Positions 2,529 to 62,536 are shown, counted from the first letter of the stretch. The stretch: 64,000 bases of DNA from Longimicrobiales bacterium (GCA_965238005.1 OZ250165.1:2464001-2528000); one strand, 5' to 3'. A program made the numbers and translations. Notes: generated from the letters alone by a model not told the origin.

Positions 2529-4265
2529 ATGGCCACGGCCATTCGTTCGAGGGCCCGGAGCGCATGGAGCGCCCTCCGGGCTTTCTGGCGTCAATCGCGT
2601 AGCGAGTTCCGAGGCGGGCTCACCCCCTGGAGCGTGTCGGCGCTGGTGGTGGTGGCTCTCACGACCCTCCCCCTGCTGGTGATCACCGTGGGGGTCTTCG
2701 GGCCCCGTACCGAGATCTGGCAGCACTTGGCCAGTACCGTTCTCCCGGTGTACGTGGGAAACTCGGCGTTGCTCATGGTGGGGGTGGGCGTGTTGGCTCT
2801 TTTCCTCGGGCTGGCGCCGGCCTGGCTCGTGTCGGCCTACGAGTTCCCCGGACGGCGCACCTTCGAGTGGAGCCTGGTCCTGCCGTTGGCCATCCCCACC
2901 TACATCATCGCCTACACCTACGCCGGCGTCTTCGAGTACGGGAGCGCCATGTCGGGCGTGCTGAGTGCTCTCTGGCCCGGGGCCGAGACGTGGCGGGTCC
3001 GATCGGCGATCATGTCCCGCGGAGGTGTCACCGTCATGATGGCCCTGGTGCTCTACCCGTACGTGTACGTCATCGCCCGGGCCTCCTTCCTCCGACAGTC
3101 GGGCGCCGTGCTGGAGACCGCGCGCAGTCTGGGGCGGGGACCGTGGAACACGTTCTTCCGGGTGGCCCTTCCCATGTCACGTCCAGCGGTCGTAGGCGGG
3201 TTGACGCTGGTGCTCATGGAGGTGCTCAACGAGTACGGAGCCGTGAAGTACTTCGGTGTGCCCACGTTCACGACGGGGATCTTCCGGGCCTGGTTCCCGT
3301 TGAACGACCCCACGTCAGCCATGCGCCTTTCGGGTATCCTGCTCCTTTTCGTCTTCTCGCTCATCGTCTTCGAGCGGGCACAGAGAGGCCGGGCCCGTTT
3401 CGATGATGGCGCAAGGGGGTACCGACCCAGCGAGAGGCAGAGGCTGGGAAGGCGGGGGCGATGGCTCTCGTTTGCCGCATGCCTCCTACCGTTGACGCTG
3501 GGCTTCCTGGTTCCGGTCCTCCAGCTCCTGGAGTGGGCGACCCGGGCCGGGTTCGGAGCGCTGGACGCACGCTTTGTGGAGCTCACGCTCCACAGCTTTA
3601 CACTGGCCCTCACCGCCGCGCTTCTGGCGGTCCTTGCGGCCCTGCTCATCGCGTACGCCGTACGGCTGAGCCCCACCCCCTTCCTCCGCCTCGCCTCGAA
3701 GGTGGCGGTCCTGGGCTATTCGATTCCGGGAGCCGTCATCGCAGTGGGCGTCTTCATCCCGTTCGTGTGGGTGGACCGACACGTGGACGCGTTCATGAGA
3801 GCGTCCTTCGGCCTCCCCACGGGGCTCCTGCTGAGCGGAACACTGGTGGCTCTCGTCGTCGCGTACGTGGTGCGCTTCCTGGCCGTGGCGCTCAACCCCC
3901 TCGAGTCGGGCTTCAAGCGCCTGTGCGGCAATCTCGACGAGAGCTCGAGATCGCTGGGAGTTCCGCCGCTCAACACGCTCTGGAGGGTGGACCTGCCTTT
4001 GCTCAAGGGCACCCTTCTGAGCGCCGCCCTTCTGGTCTTCGTGGACGTGCTCAAGGAGCTGCCCCTCACCCTGATTCTCCGCCCGTTCAACTTCGACACC
4101 CTGGCCACCCGGGCCTTCCAACTCGCCACCGACGAGCAGCTGACCCAGTCGGCCGTGCCCGCGCTGCTCATCGTCACCGTGGGTCTGGTGCCCGTGATCG
4201 TGCTGAACAAGCTTATCGGGAGGGGCGGCCCCGGGGACGGCGGAGGCGGTTCGAGCGGCAAGTAG
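2529..4265 (+). CDS. fbpB: Fe(3+) ABC transporter permease (FbpB/FutB family)
   Basis: Two ABC permease halves with EAA-like loops (ETARSLG, ESSRSLG), LPLAIPTYIIAY and KELPLTLILRPFNFDTLA. Confidence 0.92.
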   Translation: MATAIRSRARSAWSALRAFWRQSRSEFRGGLTPWSVSALVVVALTTLPLLVITVGVFGPRTEIWQHLASTVLPVYVGNSALLMVGVGVLALFLGLAPAWLVSAYEFPGRRTFEWSLVLPLAIPTYIIAYTYAGVFEYGSAMSGVLSALWPGAETWRVRSAIMSRGGVTVMMALVLYPYVYVIARASFLRQSGAVLETARSLGRGPWNTFFRVALPMSRPAVVGGLTLVLMEVLNEYGAVKYFGVPTFTTGIFRAWFPLNDPTSAMRLSGILLLFVFSLIVFERAQRGRARFDDGARGYRPSERQRLGRRGRWLSFAACLLPLTLGFLVPVLQLLEWATRAGFGALDARFVELTLHSFTLALTAALLAVLAALLIAYAVRLSPTPFLRLASKVAVLGYSIPGAVIAVGVFIPFVWVDRHVDAFMRASFGLPTGLLLSGTLVALVVAYVVRFLAVALNPLESGFKRLCGNLDESSRSLGVPPLNTLWRVDLPLLKGTLLSAALLVFVDVLKELPLTLILRPFNFDTLATRAFQLATDEQLTQSAVPALLIVTVGLVPVIVLNKLIGRGGPGDGGGGSSGK

Positions 4266-56672: not shown

Positions 56673-56820
56673 GCCAAATTACCCTAAGCCAACTAATGTG
56701 AGAATGCGCCAAAAAGAGCTTGCCGCCGCTGGCTTCGCCACACCAGCCCTCCTCCGACCGCACCCCGACTCGGGTCCGCCGAGTCCCTAAAGTCGAGCGG
56801 CCCGCTGAGTGGAGAGAACA

Positions 56821-58296
56821 ATGAAATTCGAAGGAATTATCCCACCGGTCACAACACCGTTTGGAAAGGACGGTTCGGTGGACGCAGCTCGCCTCTTCCC
56901 GCCTAGACCGACCAAACGCCGACGTCTCTGGGTCGCTGTGACTCTGGCGACAGCCGTGGCGTTCTTCGAACCTGGGGCCACCGCGTCCGCGGAAACTCGT
57001 CCGCCCGTCGTGGCACCCCTCTCCACCGGCCAACAGGCAGGCTCGGCTCTGGAACGCACTCTCCGGGAATGGGAGGTCAAGAAGGAGAAGATGGAGCTTC
57101 ACCTCCGGCCCGCCATGCGCCGTCACGGCATCGGCATGTGGATCCTCATGAGCCGGGAGTTTCACCCGGATCCAGTTCTCGATCTGTTCGGCGGCCACGG
57201 CATCTCGGGCTGGTACGGGCATCGCAACGCCTACATCTTCCGCGATCCGGGCGGCGACCGCCCTCTGGAGAGCGTGATTCTCGGCACTCACCAGAGTGAG
57301 CACATGCATCGCTTCTTCGAGCGCATCGAGAGCTACGGGGAAGAGGGACTGGCACCGCACTTGCGTGAATACGTGCAGCAAGCGGATCCGGGGCGCATCG
57401 CCATCAACCGGTCAAGGACGGTAGCGATGGCCGACGGCATCACTGCCGCGTTGCTTGCGTACCTCGAGGAGGCTGTCGGCCCGGAGTATTCATCGCGGCT
57501 CGTGTCGTCAGAACCGCTGGTGATCGACTATGTGAGCCGCCGCACGCCTGCGGAGCTGGCAATCGAGACCGAGGCGAGCTGGCGCACATGGAACATCCTT
57601 CGCCGGGCTTTCTCCAATGAGGTCATCACACCGGGTCGCACCCGTCTGATGGAGGTCTGGGGATGGATCGTCGACGAATGGAAATCCCAGCACCTGGATT
57701 TCAACTTCGCGCCCGGCCTGACTATCTACCGGCGTGGCGAGCCCGAGGGCATCGACGACTCCGCCGATCCAGTCATCGAGCCGGGGGACCTGCTTCACGT
57801 CGACTTCGGCGTTCGGCTGATGGGCCTGGTCACCGACCAGCAGCACCTCGCCTACGTGCTGCGCCCGGGCGAAACGGAGCCGCCCGCGGGCTTGCAAGAC
57901 GTCTTCCAGCAGTCGGTACGGGTGGCGGAGATCTATGCGGAGGAGCTGAAGCCGGGCCGGGCGGGTCACGAAGTCAAGGACATCGCCGAGCGCCGTGCCC
58001 GCCAGGAAGGGATCGATGCCTTGCTCTACGGGCACACGCAAGGCAACTGGGTGCACGGCGTGGGGGCCCGCACCGTGTTTGACTGGCCAGAGCGTTACGG
58101 CATCTTTCCGCGGGAGCCGGTGCGAATCGGAGAGTTCTGGTCGATCGAGTTCCGGGTGAGGGCGCCGGTGCCGGAATGGGATGGTCAGGTCGTGCCCATT
58201 CCCCGAGAGGAGGACGCCTGGATCGATTCCGATGGCACGGCCCGCTTCCTGACGGGCCCACAAACAGAGCTCTGGATCGTTCGCAGCGGTGGTTGA
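56821..58296 (+). CDS. M24 family aminopeptidase with a DapA-like N-terminal 21 residues
   Basis: Metal ligands HVDFG, TDQQH, H..G..VH, SIE and REED are present; begins MKFEGIIPPVTTPFGKDGSVD. Confidence 0.85.
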   Translation: MKFEGIIPPVTTPFGKDGSVDAARLFPPRPTKRRRLWVAVTLATAVAFFEPGATASAETRPPVVAPLSTGQQAGSALERTLREWEVKKEKMELHLRPAMRRHGIGMWILMSREFHPDPVLDLFGGHGISGWYGHRNAYIFRDPGGDRPLESVILGTHQSEHMHRFFERIESYGEEGLAPHLREYVQQADPGRIAINRSRTVAMADGITAALLAYLEEAVGPEYSSRLVSSEPLVIDYVSRRTPAELAIETEASWRTWNILRRAFSNEVITPGRTRLMEVWGWIVDEWKSQHLDFNFAPGLTIYRRGEPEGIDDSADPVIEPGDLLHVDFGVRLMGLVTDQQHLAYVLRPGETEPPAGLQDVFQQSVRVAEIYAEELKPGRAGHEVKDIAERRARQEGIDALLYGHTQGNWVHGVGARTVFDWPERYGIFPREPVRIGEFWSIEFRVRAPVPEWDGQVVPIPREEDAWIDSDGTARFLTGPQTELWIVRSGG

Positions 58297-60462: not shown

Positions 60463-61104
60463 TTAGGGGTACAAAGACCTGAATGCGCCGCCGTCTGCGG
60501 TGGAGAACGGCGAGGCCTGCCCGATGTCATCCCAGACCTCGAGCTGTTCGCGAAAGCGCATGAAGTAGGCGACGAAGTCACCACCATACTGGAACGAGTA
60601 CATAATGTCCGCGAAAGCACTGGTATGGGGGAGCCCAAACGCATGGCCTAGCTCATGAACACAGGTCAGATAAACGACCGTATCCCTGAAGAGCGGATCC
60701 AGCCTCGCCCTTCGCGCGATGTCCGGCCTAAGACCGTCGGTATCTGGGCGCACGAACACGTCGGCGGCGAGCCGCCCCTCCACTAGTCGTCCTCGCATCT
60801 CACCGTATAGACCCGCGCCCCCGGGCACCCAATAGACGCGAATGGTCGCGGACGCTTCAGGGCCCGGCACCATGTCCACGGGGGGATCGGCCTGCCTGCC
60901 CCACGCCCCTAGCGCCCATTCGGCCAGGGTCCGGTCTCCCTCCTTGAACCCCGATTCGGCCGAGCCTTCCGCAATGAAGTACGTGATGGACTCTGAAGAG
61001 TCCAACCGCCAGACGTCCTGCTGGGAGTAGGCCGCGACCGGGGCGTTGAGGGTCCCGGCCGCGATCGTGAGCGCCCCAACCCAGAGAATGCGCAGTCTCG
61101 CCAT
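60463..61104 (-). CDS. Matrixin-like (metzincin) secreted metalloprotease
   Basis: Signal peptide, HELGHAFGLPH zinc motif and DIMY Met-turn. Confidence 0.85.
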   Translation of the reverse strand: MARLRILWVGALTIAAGTLNAPVAAYSQQDVWRLDSSESITYFIAEGSAESGFKEGDRTLAEWALGAWGRQADPPVDMVPGPEASATIRVYWVPGGAGLYGEMRGRLVEGRLAADVFVRPDTDGLRPDIARRARLDPLFRDTVVYLTCVHELGHAFGLPHTSAFADIMYSFQYGGDFVAYFMRFREQLEVWDDIGQASPFSTADGGAFRSLYP

Positions 61105-61265
61105 AACACCCGAACGTCCGTTACTATGCCTTCCACTGCAAGGTCTTCCGGGCGGAACGAACCAGGATCGCAGTCGATAAGAAAAAGGTAAAGCAGAAGC
61201 TAAGCCGCCGCGCCGAATCACGGCAAACGGTTGTTTGTAAATCACTCATGTGGCAGTGCCAATCT

Positions 61266-61281
61266 TGGCACGGACCTTGTC
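61266..61281 (+). promoter_or_regulatory. sigma54-like -24/-12 promoter
   Basis: TGGCACG-GACC-TTGT against consensus TGGCACR-N4-TTGC, with correct GG to G spacing and a mismatch at -12. Confidence 0.55.
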
Positions 61282-61291
61282 ATAGAAACGG

Positions 61292-61450
61292 ACGTCGGAC
61301 GGAGGAGACGAAGTCCGACCGGAAAACGGCGAATGTGATGATGATGGGGGGACAGTTGAGGAGCCTGGGTGGATGATGTGGGGATGATGTGAATTGGCTC
61401 GACGCCGTAAAAAGCTCGGCAGGGATCGCCCCCCTGCCGAGCTTTTTTTT
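61292..61450 (+). ncRNA. Candidate GGA-rich small RNA
   Basis: Starts at the predicted sigma54 +1 with hairpin GTCGGAC-(GGAGGAGACGAA)-GTCCGAC, has nine GGA triplets and ends in a terminator; no credible ORF. Confidence 0.55.
61409..61450 (+). terminator. Strong intrinsic (bidirectional-looking) terminator
   Basis: AAAAA-GCTCGGCAGGG-atcgccc-CCCTGCCGAGC-TTTTTTTT. Confidence 0.9.
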
Positions 61451-61528
61451 GCACCCCTCCGAAGGATGGGGTAGTCTCCCACCACCACCCATGCCCTCAT
61501 TCCCATAGACTCCACTCCGACGCCGCGC

Positions 61529-62536
61529 GTGAGCCCCGCCCTCGTCGCGCCCGACACCGGGCCCCCGGAGTCGACTCCCTCCCCGACTCTCGTCGTGCTG
61601 GCAGCCGGCCTGTCCACCCGGTATGGGGCCGTGAAGCCACTCGCGTCCGTCGGCCCGCAAGGAGAAGCCCTCATCGACTACGCCCTCTACGATGCCGCCT
61701 GCTCGGGATACGGTGACGCGATCCTGGTGGTGCGCCGGGAGATCGAGGCCGAGGTGTCACTGCATGTCGAGAAGCTCACCGGGGGCTCCTGGCCCTGCCG
61801 CTTCGTTTGCCAGCGCATGGACGACCTCCCCGACGGTGTTGCATTCGCTGGAGGCCGTGCGAAGCCCTGGGGAACCGGCCACGCGGTTTGGACCGCACGG
61901 TATGCCGTCCGGGGATCCTTCGCCGTGGTGAACGCAGACGACCTCTACGGGCGGGCCGCCCTACAGGCGCTGGCAGAGCATCTGCTTGTCGGGGGTGCCC
62001 GGGAGAACCGAGGACCGCAAGACTATGTGGCCATCACGTATCGGCTGGCCGACACCCTCTCCGACACCGCTCGGGTCTCGAGGGCCATCCTCAAGGTCGA
62101 CGCCGACCATCTGGTCCGGGAGATCCGTGAGGTGCTTCGGGTCCACCGTACATCGGCGGGGATCGTCGGTGAGACCCCCGACGGCGTGGTGCTGTCCTTC
62201 TCCGGCGATGAGCCGTCCTCCATGGGCATCTGGGGCTTCAAGCCCACCCTGTTTCCGCTTCTCGAGGACCGCCTCCGCTCCTTCCTCGGACGGCCCGGCG
62301 CCGATGACTCCGCGGAGTTCTACCTGAGCGACACGCTGAACGGGCTCATCGCTTCTGGAGACGCCCGGATCCGTGCGGTGGAGTCCGGTGCATCGGGATT
62401 CGGCGTGACGTTTCCCGACGATCGGTCGGAGGTTCGAGCCCGCATCGATAGGCTCGTTGCCGAGGGTGCTTATCCGGCGGATCTTCGGAGCACATTTCGA
62501 GCGTTGACGAACCCGGGTGGACCTTCAGGAACGTAG
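61529..62536 (+). CDS. Sugar-phosphate nucleotidyltransferase family protein
   Basis: LVVLAAGLSTRYG, R.KPWGTGHA, VNADD.YG, EFYL, GVT. Confidence 0.88.
   Translation: MSPALVAPDTGPPESTPSPTLVVLAAGLSTRYGAVKPLASVGPQGEALIDYALYDAACSGYGDAILVVRREIEAEVSLHVEKLTGGSWPCRFVCQRMDDLPDGVAFAGGRAKPWGTGHAVWTARYAVRGSFAVVNADDLYGRAALQALAEHLLVGGARENRGPQDYVAITYRLADTLSDTARVSRAILKVDADHLVREIREVLRVHRTSAGIVGETPDGVVLSFSGDEPSSMGIWGFKPTLFPLLEDRLRSFLGRPGADDSAEFYLSDTLNGLIASGDARIRAVESGASGFGVTFPDDRSEVRARIDRLVAEGAYPADLRSTFRALTNPGGPSGT

Follow-up and report, generated by a model that had tools for sequence, protein, structure and literature searches.

Positions 61266-61450 of the window (the whole stretch of DNA that was analysed, 64,000 nt from a Longimicrobiales bacterium) on balance probably form a free-standing gene for a sigma-54-dependent, trans-acting small RNA that belongs to a family not yet described. 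To judge from its sequence, the gene would be free-standing in that it appears to have a promoter and an intrinsic terminator of its own, no conserved reading frame, and a place in two unrelated gene contexts. Comparison between relatives shows the putative promoter, the spacing of its enhancer-like element, one internal stem (P3), the terminator and the two contexts to be conserved. The unit is held in a 424-nt intergenic gap between divergent genes. The gene on the left runs leftward and that on the right starts at 61529, and no coding sequence ends at the terminator, which the initial annotation had rightly described as an orphan. The promoter, a hairpin with a GGAGGAG-type loop (GGAGGAGACGAA), GGATGATGTG repeats, nested stems and the terminator had also been marked there, and all of them were found again where they had been placed. 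The host genome was assembled into one contig of 4.84 Mb, and marker genes put its completeness at 95.85%. The features of the locus are as follows.

60463-61104, minus strand: upstream neighbour, a gene for a secreted M10-like metallopeptidase, divergent from the gene on the right.
61190-61205, no strand assigned: deletion junction, with about 190 nt lost relative to G001 and G002 in alignment A6.
61266-61280, plus strand: sigma-54-type core promoter TGGCACGGACCTTGT, with TGGCAC at -24, a 5-nt spacer and TTGT at -12.
61292-61450, plus strand: predicted transcript of about 157 nt, its start at about 61292 placed by the usual distance from the -12 element.
61294-61319, plus strand: P1, a 5' hairpin with a 7-bp stem GTCGGAC/GTCCGAC (61294-61300 with 61313-61319) and the 12-nt loop GGAGGAGACGAA.
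61326-61331 with 61403-61408, plus strand: P2, a long-range stem ACGGCG/CGCCGT around a G-rich core, from the MFE structure.
61332-61360, plus strand: unpaired G/A/U-rich stretch, GAUGAUGAUG and then a run of G, from the alignments.
61361-61365 with 61396-61400, plus strand: P3, a stem GAGCC/GGCTC with a 30-nt G/U-rich loop, from compensatory changes and RNAalifold.
61414-61450, plus strand: intrinsic terminator, an 11-bp GC-rich stem (61414-61424 with 61432-61442) with an extension of A/U pairs, and eight T (61443-61450).
61449-61454 and 61472-61477, plus strand: promoter-like TTGCAC and TAGTCT with a 17-nt spacer, outside the RNA, recognised by the conserved hexamers and their spacing.
61529-62536, plus strand: downstream neighbour, outside the RNA, a gene for a nucleotidyltransferase-like protein of 335 aa that matches Pfam NTP_transf_3 at 25.4 bits, under the cut-off of 27, and PDB 3pnn with E 6.6e-65.
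From 62542, following the nucleotidyltransferase gene: a sodium:solute symporter gene (Pfam SSF; NCBIfam sodium/solute symporter).

Ten copies of the RNA were found, spread over four genera of a single Longimicrobiales family (Gemmatimonadota) and present in 10 of the 314 genomes searched. They are those of G000 and G002 (genus g1), G053, G173 and G174 (g48), G045 (g40) and G016, G216, G217 and G218 (g15). BLAST recovered the whole unit in G002, of the same genus as the present genome, together with a match in G001 that starts only at the terminator loop. The whole unit is also present upstream of the nearest nucleotidyltransferase orthologue (68% identity, another genus), and BLAST of the 314 family genomes added two further species of that genus. 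A shorter form, predicted at about 110 nt, came from the covariance model R1 in three g15 species, and an exact search with the 15-mer TGGCACGRACYTTGT brought in the last of the four g15 species as well as G045, the representative of the fourth genus. A pattern scan of a genome collection matched only the G002 record, and exact-pattern scans of metagenomes gave no match. Rfam, searched over 60900-61800 with E up to 10, returned no family and only chance-level terminator matches; across the whole window its sole match at gathering score is a tRNA. The description of the unit as an undescribed, self-contained small RNA gene thus holds up, with a sigma-54-type promoter and a terminator of its own conserved in relatives and no counterpart in Rfam.

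Beyond these ten copies the searches yielded weaker material. Of 151 genomes from the order that were searched with model R2, 36 gave weak matches; at the 15 best full-length places inspected, the 150 nt upstream contain no sigma-54-like motif, and for most of them the score came from the terminator alone. Five of ten weak BLAST matches were inspected (L044, L045, L046, L048 and L052) and set aside as coding-like sequence without the unit. The weak R1 matches in G301 and G013 were not convincing when their sequences were read; further weak ones, known from their scores alone, lie in G231, G093, G170, G096 and G183. At L102 (G402:C596, ~3666-3840) the RNA model matched by composition a long tandem array of GGTGTGAT with neither a terminator nor a sigma-54 motif.

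The consensus for sigma-54 promoters is TGGCAC-N5-TTGC, that is, a GG at -24 and a GC at -12 at fixed spacing. The core promoter here fits the spacing and nine of the ten consensus bases, a T replacing the C of the -12 GC. Other sigma-54-like motifs of the host genome carry the usual TTGC at -12, and TGGCAC-N5-TTGT is rare, with three occurrences in the 4.84-Mb genome when both strands are counted. Both partners of such a promoter are represented: rpoN is found with a Sigma54_DBD match of 213.5 bits, and enhancer-binding proteins with ten Sigma54_activat matches above 160 bits. Conservation begins abruptly at TGGCAC, the sequence immediately upstream varying among genera, and the 15-mer TGGCACGRACYTTGT is nearly invariant, being present in nine of the ten family members. 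Its exact search across the 314 family genomes gave 14 matches as compared to 5 for the reversed control; nine of these are at the RNA, one is within an apparent coding sequence and four are before apparent genes, as judged by eye. The latter lie, again by eye, about 40-115 nt ahead of the apparent starts of unrelated genes in three other genera, and the genes behind them may be members of a sigma-54 regulon in the family. At these places (L081, L084 (G236), L082 (G008) and L083 (G252)) the apparent genes are for signal-peptide/lipoprotein-like products. Another sigma-54-like motif of the window, TGGCACCGCACTTGCG, is at ~57350 (genome 2521350, plus strand), within or beside an M24 peptidase-like ORF at 56809-58296.

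Upstream of the promoter, seven of the nine promoter-bearing copies (three genera, both gene contexts) have a palindrome, GGACA..TGTCC, with its start at -101 to -103, and so fixed a spacing between palindrome and promoter is characteristic of the enhancers of sigma-54 activators. A second conserved upstream element, GTAAC, is found at -43 in six of the nine. In genus g15 GGACA occurs again at -82, 21 nt downstream, in all four copies, and this second site is a scored palindrome in three of them; in G045 GGACA is found at -114 and -93. By contrast with these relatives, an activator site about 80-150 nt upstream is absent from this window, GGACA not being found within 260 nt upstream of the promoter in this genome. 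The ~190-nt deletion lies between the peptidase gene and the promoter and removed the enhancer-like palindrome, so that expression in this strain is doubtful: the RNA gene may be silent or weakly expressed here even though the RNA is intact. Elsewhere in the host genome GGACA..TGTCC has 30 sites, none of them clearly placed before other sigma-54-like motifs. The deletion is flanked by short GCT(A/C)A repeats. In genus g48 an opposite-strand tRNA gene abuts the enhancer region (L009:3180-3290 of G053; L041 of G174), a fragment of this tRNA gene is left in G001 (L003:1680-1730), and in no genus has the left flank of the unit escaped rearrangement.

If loss of the enhancer, which relatives carry at -103, has switched the gene off, then the unit in this genome could be a silent remnant, its RNA gene intact and heading for the loss already seen in G001. 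There, a clean deletion of about 215 nt begins ahead of the promoter and reaches the terminator loop (L003:1490-1885), and has taken the RNA with it; in G174 it is the -24 element that has been lost. P1, P3 and the terminator nevertheless show no disrupting change in comparison to G002, and P2 differs only in a C-G as against a U-G pair; furthermore, enhancer-binding proteins can on occasion work with no site close by, and there may be another promoter. Silence of this kind seems to us rather unlikely, would concern this strain only, and is compatible with a small RNA gene as the best explanation for the family. One part of the unit is missing from three of the six genomes in g1 and g48 (the enhancer here, the RNA in G001, the -24 element in G174), which suggests that the unit is dispensable or decaying there. 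The deletions in G001 and in the present genome are independent events in sister species.

The predicted RNA strand folds with -62.2 kcal/mol as compared to -50.7 +/- 4.1 for shuffled sequences (z -2.83), 2 of 200 shuffles being as good. The minus strand has an even better z-score (-5.54), so that folding energy alone does not decide the strand; the plus strand is supported by G-U pairs in P2, P3 and the terminator, which on the opposite strand would turn into A-C mismatches. RNAalifold, unprompted, gives the same two helices, P3 and the terminator. In the ten-sequence alignment A5 the proportion of paired cells is 94.0%, as compared to 83.0 +/- 1.8 for shuffled alignments, a value reached by none of 500 shuffles, which ignore relatedness, and controls in which the pairing partner was slid gave 34-59%. 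Overall, seven of the 19 pairs have changed on both sides. Alignment A7, which includes two reverse-strand matches to the terminator, was left out of the counts.

In P3, both partners of four of the five pairs differ when genus g15 is compared with the other members of alignment A5. All of these compensatory changes separate g15 from the other genera and therefore amount to about one evolutionary event; covariation support for the predicted P3 stem is thus good, though not overwhelming. Its loop carries GGATGATGTG twice, at 61371 and 61382, and across the family it measures 24-47 nt and contains runs like GGUG-N-UGAUGUG in varying number. There are two repeat units here and three in G002, which has an extra unit of 17 nt, and the GGATGATGTG repeats are the fast-evolving part of the RNA. 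All ten family members have a GAUG-N-GGGG(A)-like motif in the unpaired stretch before P3. The core of the RNA (61320-61403) is 11% C and 44% G.

A hairpin is kept at the place of P1 in G002, G053, G173 and G174, where in G174 both partners of two pairs differ (by eye); P1 is absent in genus g15, and is replaced in G045 by a different 12-bp hairpin with a different loop. P2 shows only one-sided changes to U-G (G002, G053), which is weak support, and was not found in G045. No reading frame is conserved in the RNA: indels of 1 nt and 17 nt separate close relatives, and a small protein was rejected as a product, the frames differing among all genera when compared by eye. In DNA contigs of related strains, all four substitutions within 61292-61450 fall at positions unpaired in the predicted fold.

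The terminator shows compensatory changes in three of its 14 pairs and has 92.8% of cells paired. A simple terminator scan did not list the hairpin at 61414-61450, and its assignment therefore rests on the fold, the pairing in the alignment and RNAalifold. The promoter-like TTGCAC-17-TAGTCT that follows is kept, in hexamers and spacing, in G000, G002, G053 and G174, the spacer sequence varying; G173 has TTGCTC and G001 TTTCAC as the upstream hexamer. A promoter consensus scan did not list this element; its pattern is the one expected of a sigma-70-type promoter for the nucleotidyltransferase operon, which it may be. Three species, one of them the RNA-less G001, are nearly identical over the 80 nt from 61449 to the nucleotidyltransferase start (61449-61528). 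Within these 80 nt the leader of the nucleotidyltransferase gene is very C-rich and G-poor, with no Shine-Dalgarno-like sequence before the GTG start, and in genera g1 and g48 the operon leader is 41-47% C. A small hairpin in the promoter-like spacer shows compensated changes. In genus g15 (L060, L061, L062 and L075) a C-rich stretch with a conserved ACGATGAC lies about 50-70 nt beyond the terminator and ahead of the promoter-like element of the PaaX-like gene described below, and echoes the C-rich region that follows the terminator in g1 and g48.

The position of the unit relative to this operon raises the question of whether it is a gene at all, or instead a cis-acting 5' leader or attenuator. 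The sigma-54-type promoter would then drive the operon and the terminator would be a regulated stop, with the short RNA a by-product, or a small RNA that has arisen from a leader. Six of the ten copies, in three genera, do lie directly upstream of the nucleotidyltransferase/symporter pair and on the same strand. The other context, that of the g15 copies, has a divergent Ser/Thr kinase gene on one side and a PaaX-like gene on the other (by Pfam in G217 and G218, the flanks in G016 and G216 being read as DNA only); the PaaX-like gene starts about 200 nt beyond the RNA and has a promoter-like element of its own, TTGCCC-17-TATATT, which speaks against a leader. The same is true of the terminator in this genome, whose 11-bp GC-rich stem and eight U make it very strong, and of the conserved TTGCAC-17-TAGTCT after it in g1 and g48. 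Furthermore, G001 retains the 75 nt after its deletion, which hold the promoter-like region, and the operon, without the RNA, and 26 of 28 other loci searched with a nucleotidyltransferase orthologue lack the RNA; in that search G053 carries it, and the G045 locus L080, which was added, scored as well. No alternative antiterminator pairing was seen on inspection by eye, and there was no match to a cis-regulatory family in Rfam.

It is in G045 that a leader is most easily imagined. A weak hairpin and an interrupted U-tract are separated there by only about 40 nt from the start codon, no separate promoter-like element having been seen, and the RNA of G045 may act as an operon leader. Such a leader may have given rise to the family, or a member of the family to the leader. 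The initial annotation had named an attenuated leader of the nucleotidyltransferase operon as the case that would undo its proposal; the evidence argues against this for the present genus and leaves it plausible for G045. For the family as a whole we consider a leader unlikely, and a small RNA gene remains the preferred reading.

As to how such an RNA might work, the initial annotation had proposed a sponge for CsrA. Sequestration of a protein, be it CsrA or another that recognises GAUG/GGUG motifs, would account for the repeated motifs in unpaired regions whose number varies between relatives, a pattern typical of sponges, and would suit a genome in which the usual pairing chaperones are without a match. 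Like CsrB, RsmY and RsmZ, the RNA is non-coding and terminator-ended and has several GGA triplets, one set of them in a hairpin loop. No protein to be sequestered is at hand, however: CsrA (PF02599) gave no match in the one-contig genome, with positive controls in three named genomes, and neither did Hfq, ProQ or RRM_1, for which the positive controls also matched. The CsrA version is thereby refuted, unless a very divergent homologue exists. The nine GGA triplets of 61292-61450 had been counted correctly, yet dinucleotide shuffles contain 7.7 +/- 1.8 and reach nine in 328 of 1000 cases, so that the count is explained by composition.

Nor is the GGA-loop hairpin a feature of the family, being absent in g15 and changed in G045, and there is no match to CsrB, RsmY, RsmZ or any other Rfam sponge family to E = 10. 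The proposal had looked to csrA and rpoN alike, and to conservation of the unit as a whole; rpoN is present and csrA is not found, and the promoter, P3 and the terminator are conserved while the 5' hairpin is not conserved family-wide. Taken with the lack of a candidate protein, this makes sequestration by the RNA, of CsrA or of anything else, the least probable of the readings considered here.

With no match for CsrA, Hfq, ProQ or RRM, the simplest mechanism for the small RNA gene is direct pairing with C/A-rich RNA. In relatives, an enhancer-binding protein would bind GGACA..TGTCC about 103 nt upstream, accompanied by the second conserved element GTAAC near -43, and switch on the sigma-54-type promoter; transcription would end at the strong intrinsic terminator. 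The resulting RNA would expose two C-poor, G/U/A-rich single-stranded surfaces, the stretch before P3 and the large P3 loop, through which it would base-pair in trans to C/A-rich segments of its targets, independently of Hfq, ProQ and CsrA. Production of the RNA, its start site, its action in trans and the kind of RNA it acts on are what we infer.

The C-rich leader of the neighbouring operon might seem an obvious target, and the RNA does form duplexes with it of -54 to -72 kcal/mol. Shuffled leaders do no worse (z +0.2, -0.44, -1.41, -1.54 and -0.3, with 171, 88, 25, 20 and 113 of 300 shuffles reaching the observed energy), and cognate pairs of RNA and leader are no better than non-cognate ones. 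Since shuffled and non-cognate leaders pair equally well, the complementarity is compositional only and the leader cannot be claimed as a target. Genome-wide, complementarity over 12-mers gave 2108 sites and was uninformative, and over 14-mers 277 clusters with no outstanding site on a crude gene map. As its alternative to a sponge, the initial annotation had offered pairing through the GAUGAUG repeats; these may take part, though they evolve fast and the searches brought up no specific target for them. More tentatively, and as a possibility that we do not hold to be likely, this could be the first riboregulator family of Gemmatimonadota, controlled by sigma-54 and an enhancer, independent of the known global RNA chaperones and with nearly C-free, G/U-rich loops and a repeat number that shifts rapidly from species to species, in which the RNA might act as a multi-site decoy for C-rich RNAs, for example the neighbouring operon leader, or form G-tract structures.

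Small RNAs dependent on sigma-54 are already well known as a kind, and what is new is the narrow RNA family itself. In Pseudomonas, CrcZ and CrcY are sigma-54-driven and titrate a regulator through repeated unpaired motifs, the A-rich motifs of CrcZ being bound by Hfq/Crc. The family here likewise has repeated unpaired motifs, but these are G/U-rich and its host has no Hfq match. Qrr small RNAs act by base pairing and depend on Hfq. With them the family has in common a sigma-54-type promoter and a terminator-ended small RNA, and it differs in the lack of an Hfq match and of any match to Rfam. These Vibrio RNAs are about 100 nt long, terminator-ended and dependent on sigma-54 and an enhancer-binding protein (PMC10162802).

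Our best reading, by analogy, is that the architecture may be closest to that of Qrr and of GlmY/GlmZ. According to PMC3045617, the sigma-54 promoters of GlmY and GlmZ in Enterobacteriaceae need the enhancer-binding response regulator GlrR, which has sites TGTC-N10-GACA, and the glmY and glmZ promoters have a site for the bending protein IHF between enhancer and promoter; sigma-54 dependence has been lost in some species. The family here is similar in having a palindrome of GACA/TGTC half-sites at fixed distance, an element at -43 and lineages that lose parts of the unit, and it is unlike GlmY/GlmZ in that the palindrome is GGACA-N2-4-TGTCC rather than TGTC-N10-GACA. Further differences are that there is no Rfam match in sequence or structure to E = 10, that the phylum is another one, and that the RNA here is C-poor and G/U-rich.

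Gemmatimonadota are a widespread and rarely cultured phylum, Rfam is without a family for this RNA, and a full-text literature search found no paper that links small RNAs with Gemmatimonadota. The unit of enhancer, sigma-54 promoter, RNA and terminator offers an entry to post-transcriptional regulation in a lineage without an Hfq, ProQ, CsrA or RRM match, and the pair of promoter and enhancer is a handle for tracing the regulon of one enhancer-binding protein.

Public sequencing runs, of which 24 were listed and two are of RNA type, were also consulted, and runs X23, X22, X2 and X4 were compared with the region. Contigs of the RNA type cover only coding parts (60900-61040 and from ~61539 onward); as these runs are assembled contigs, they are silent on expression either way. 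In run X4 a DNA contig (depth 4.9) passes directly from 61317 to 61397, leaving out 79 nt, and may come from a relative with a different or shortened core. Just past the right end of the window, at the 3' end of the symporter gene, an ORF on the minus strand (L085:2770-3894) gives a partial match to a group II intron reverse transcriptase/maturase with E 1.3e-12.
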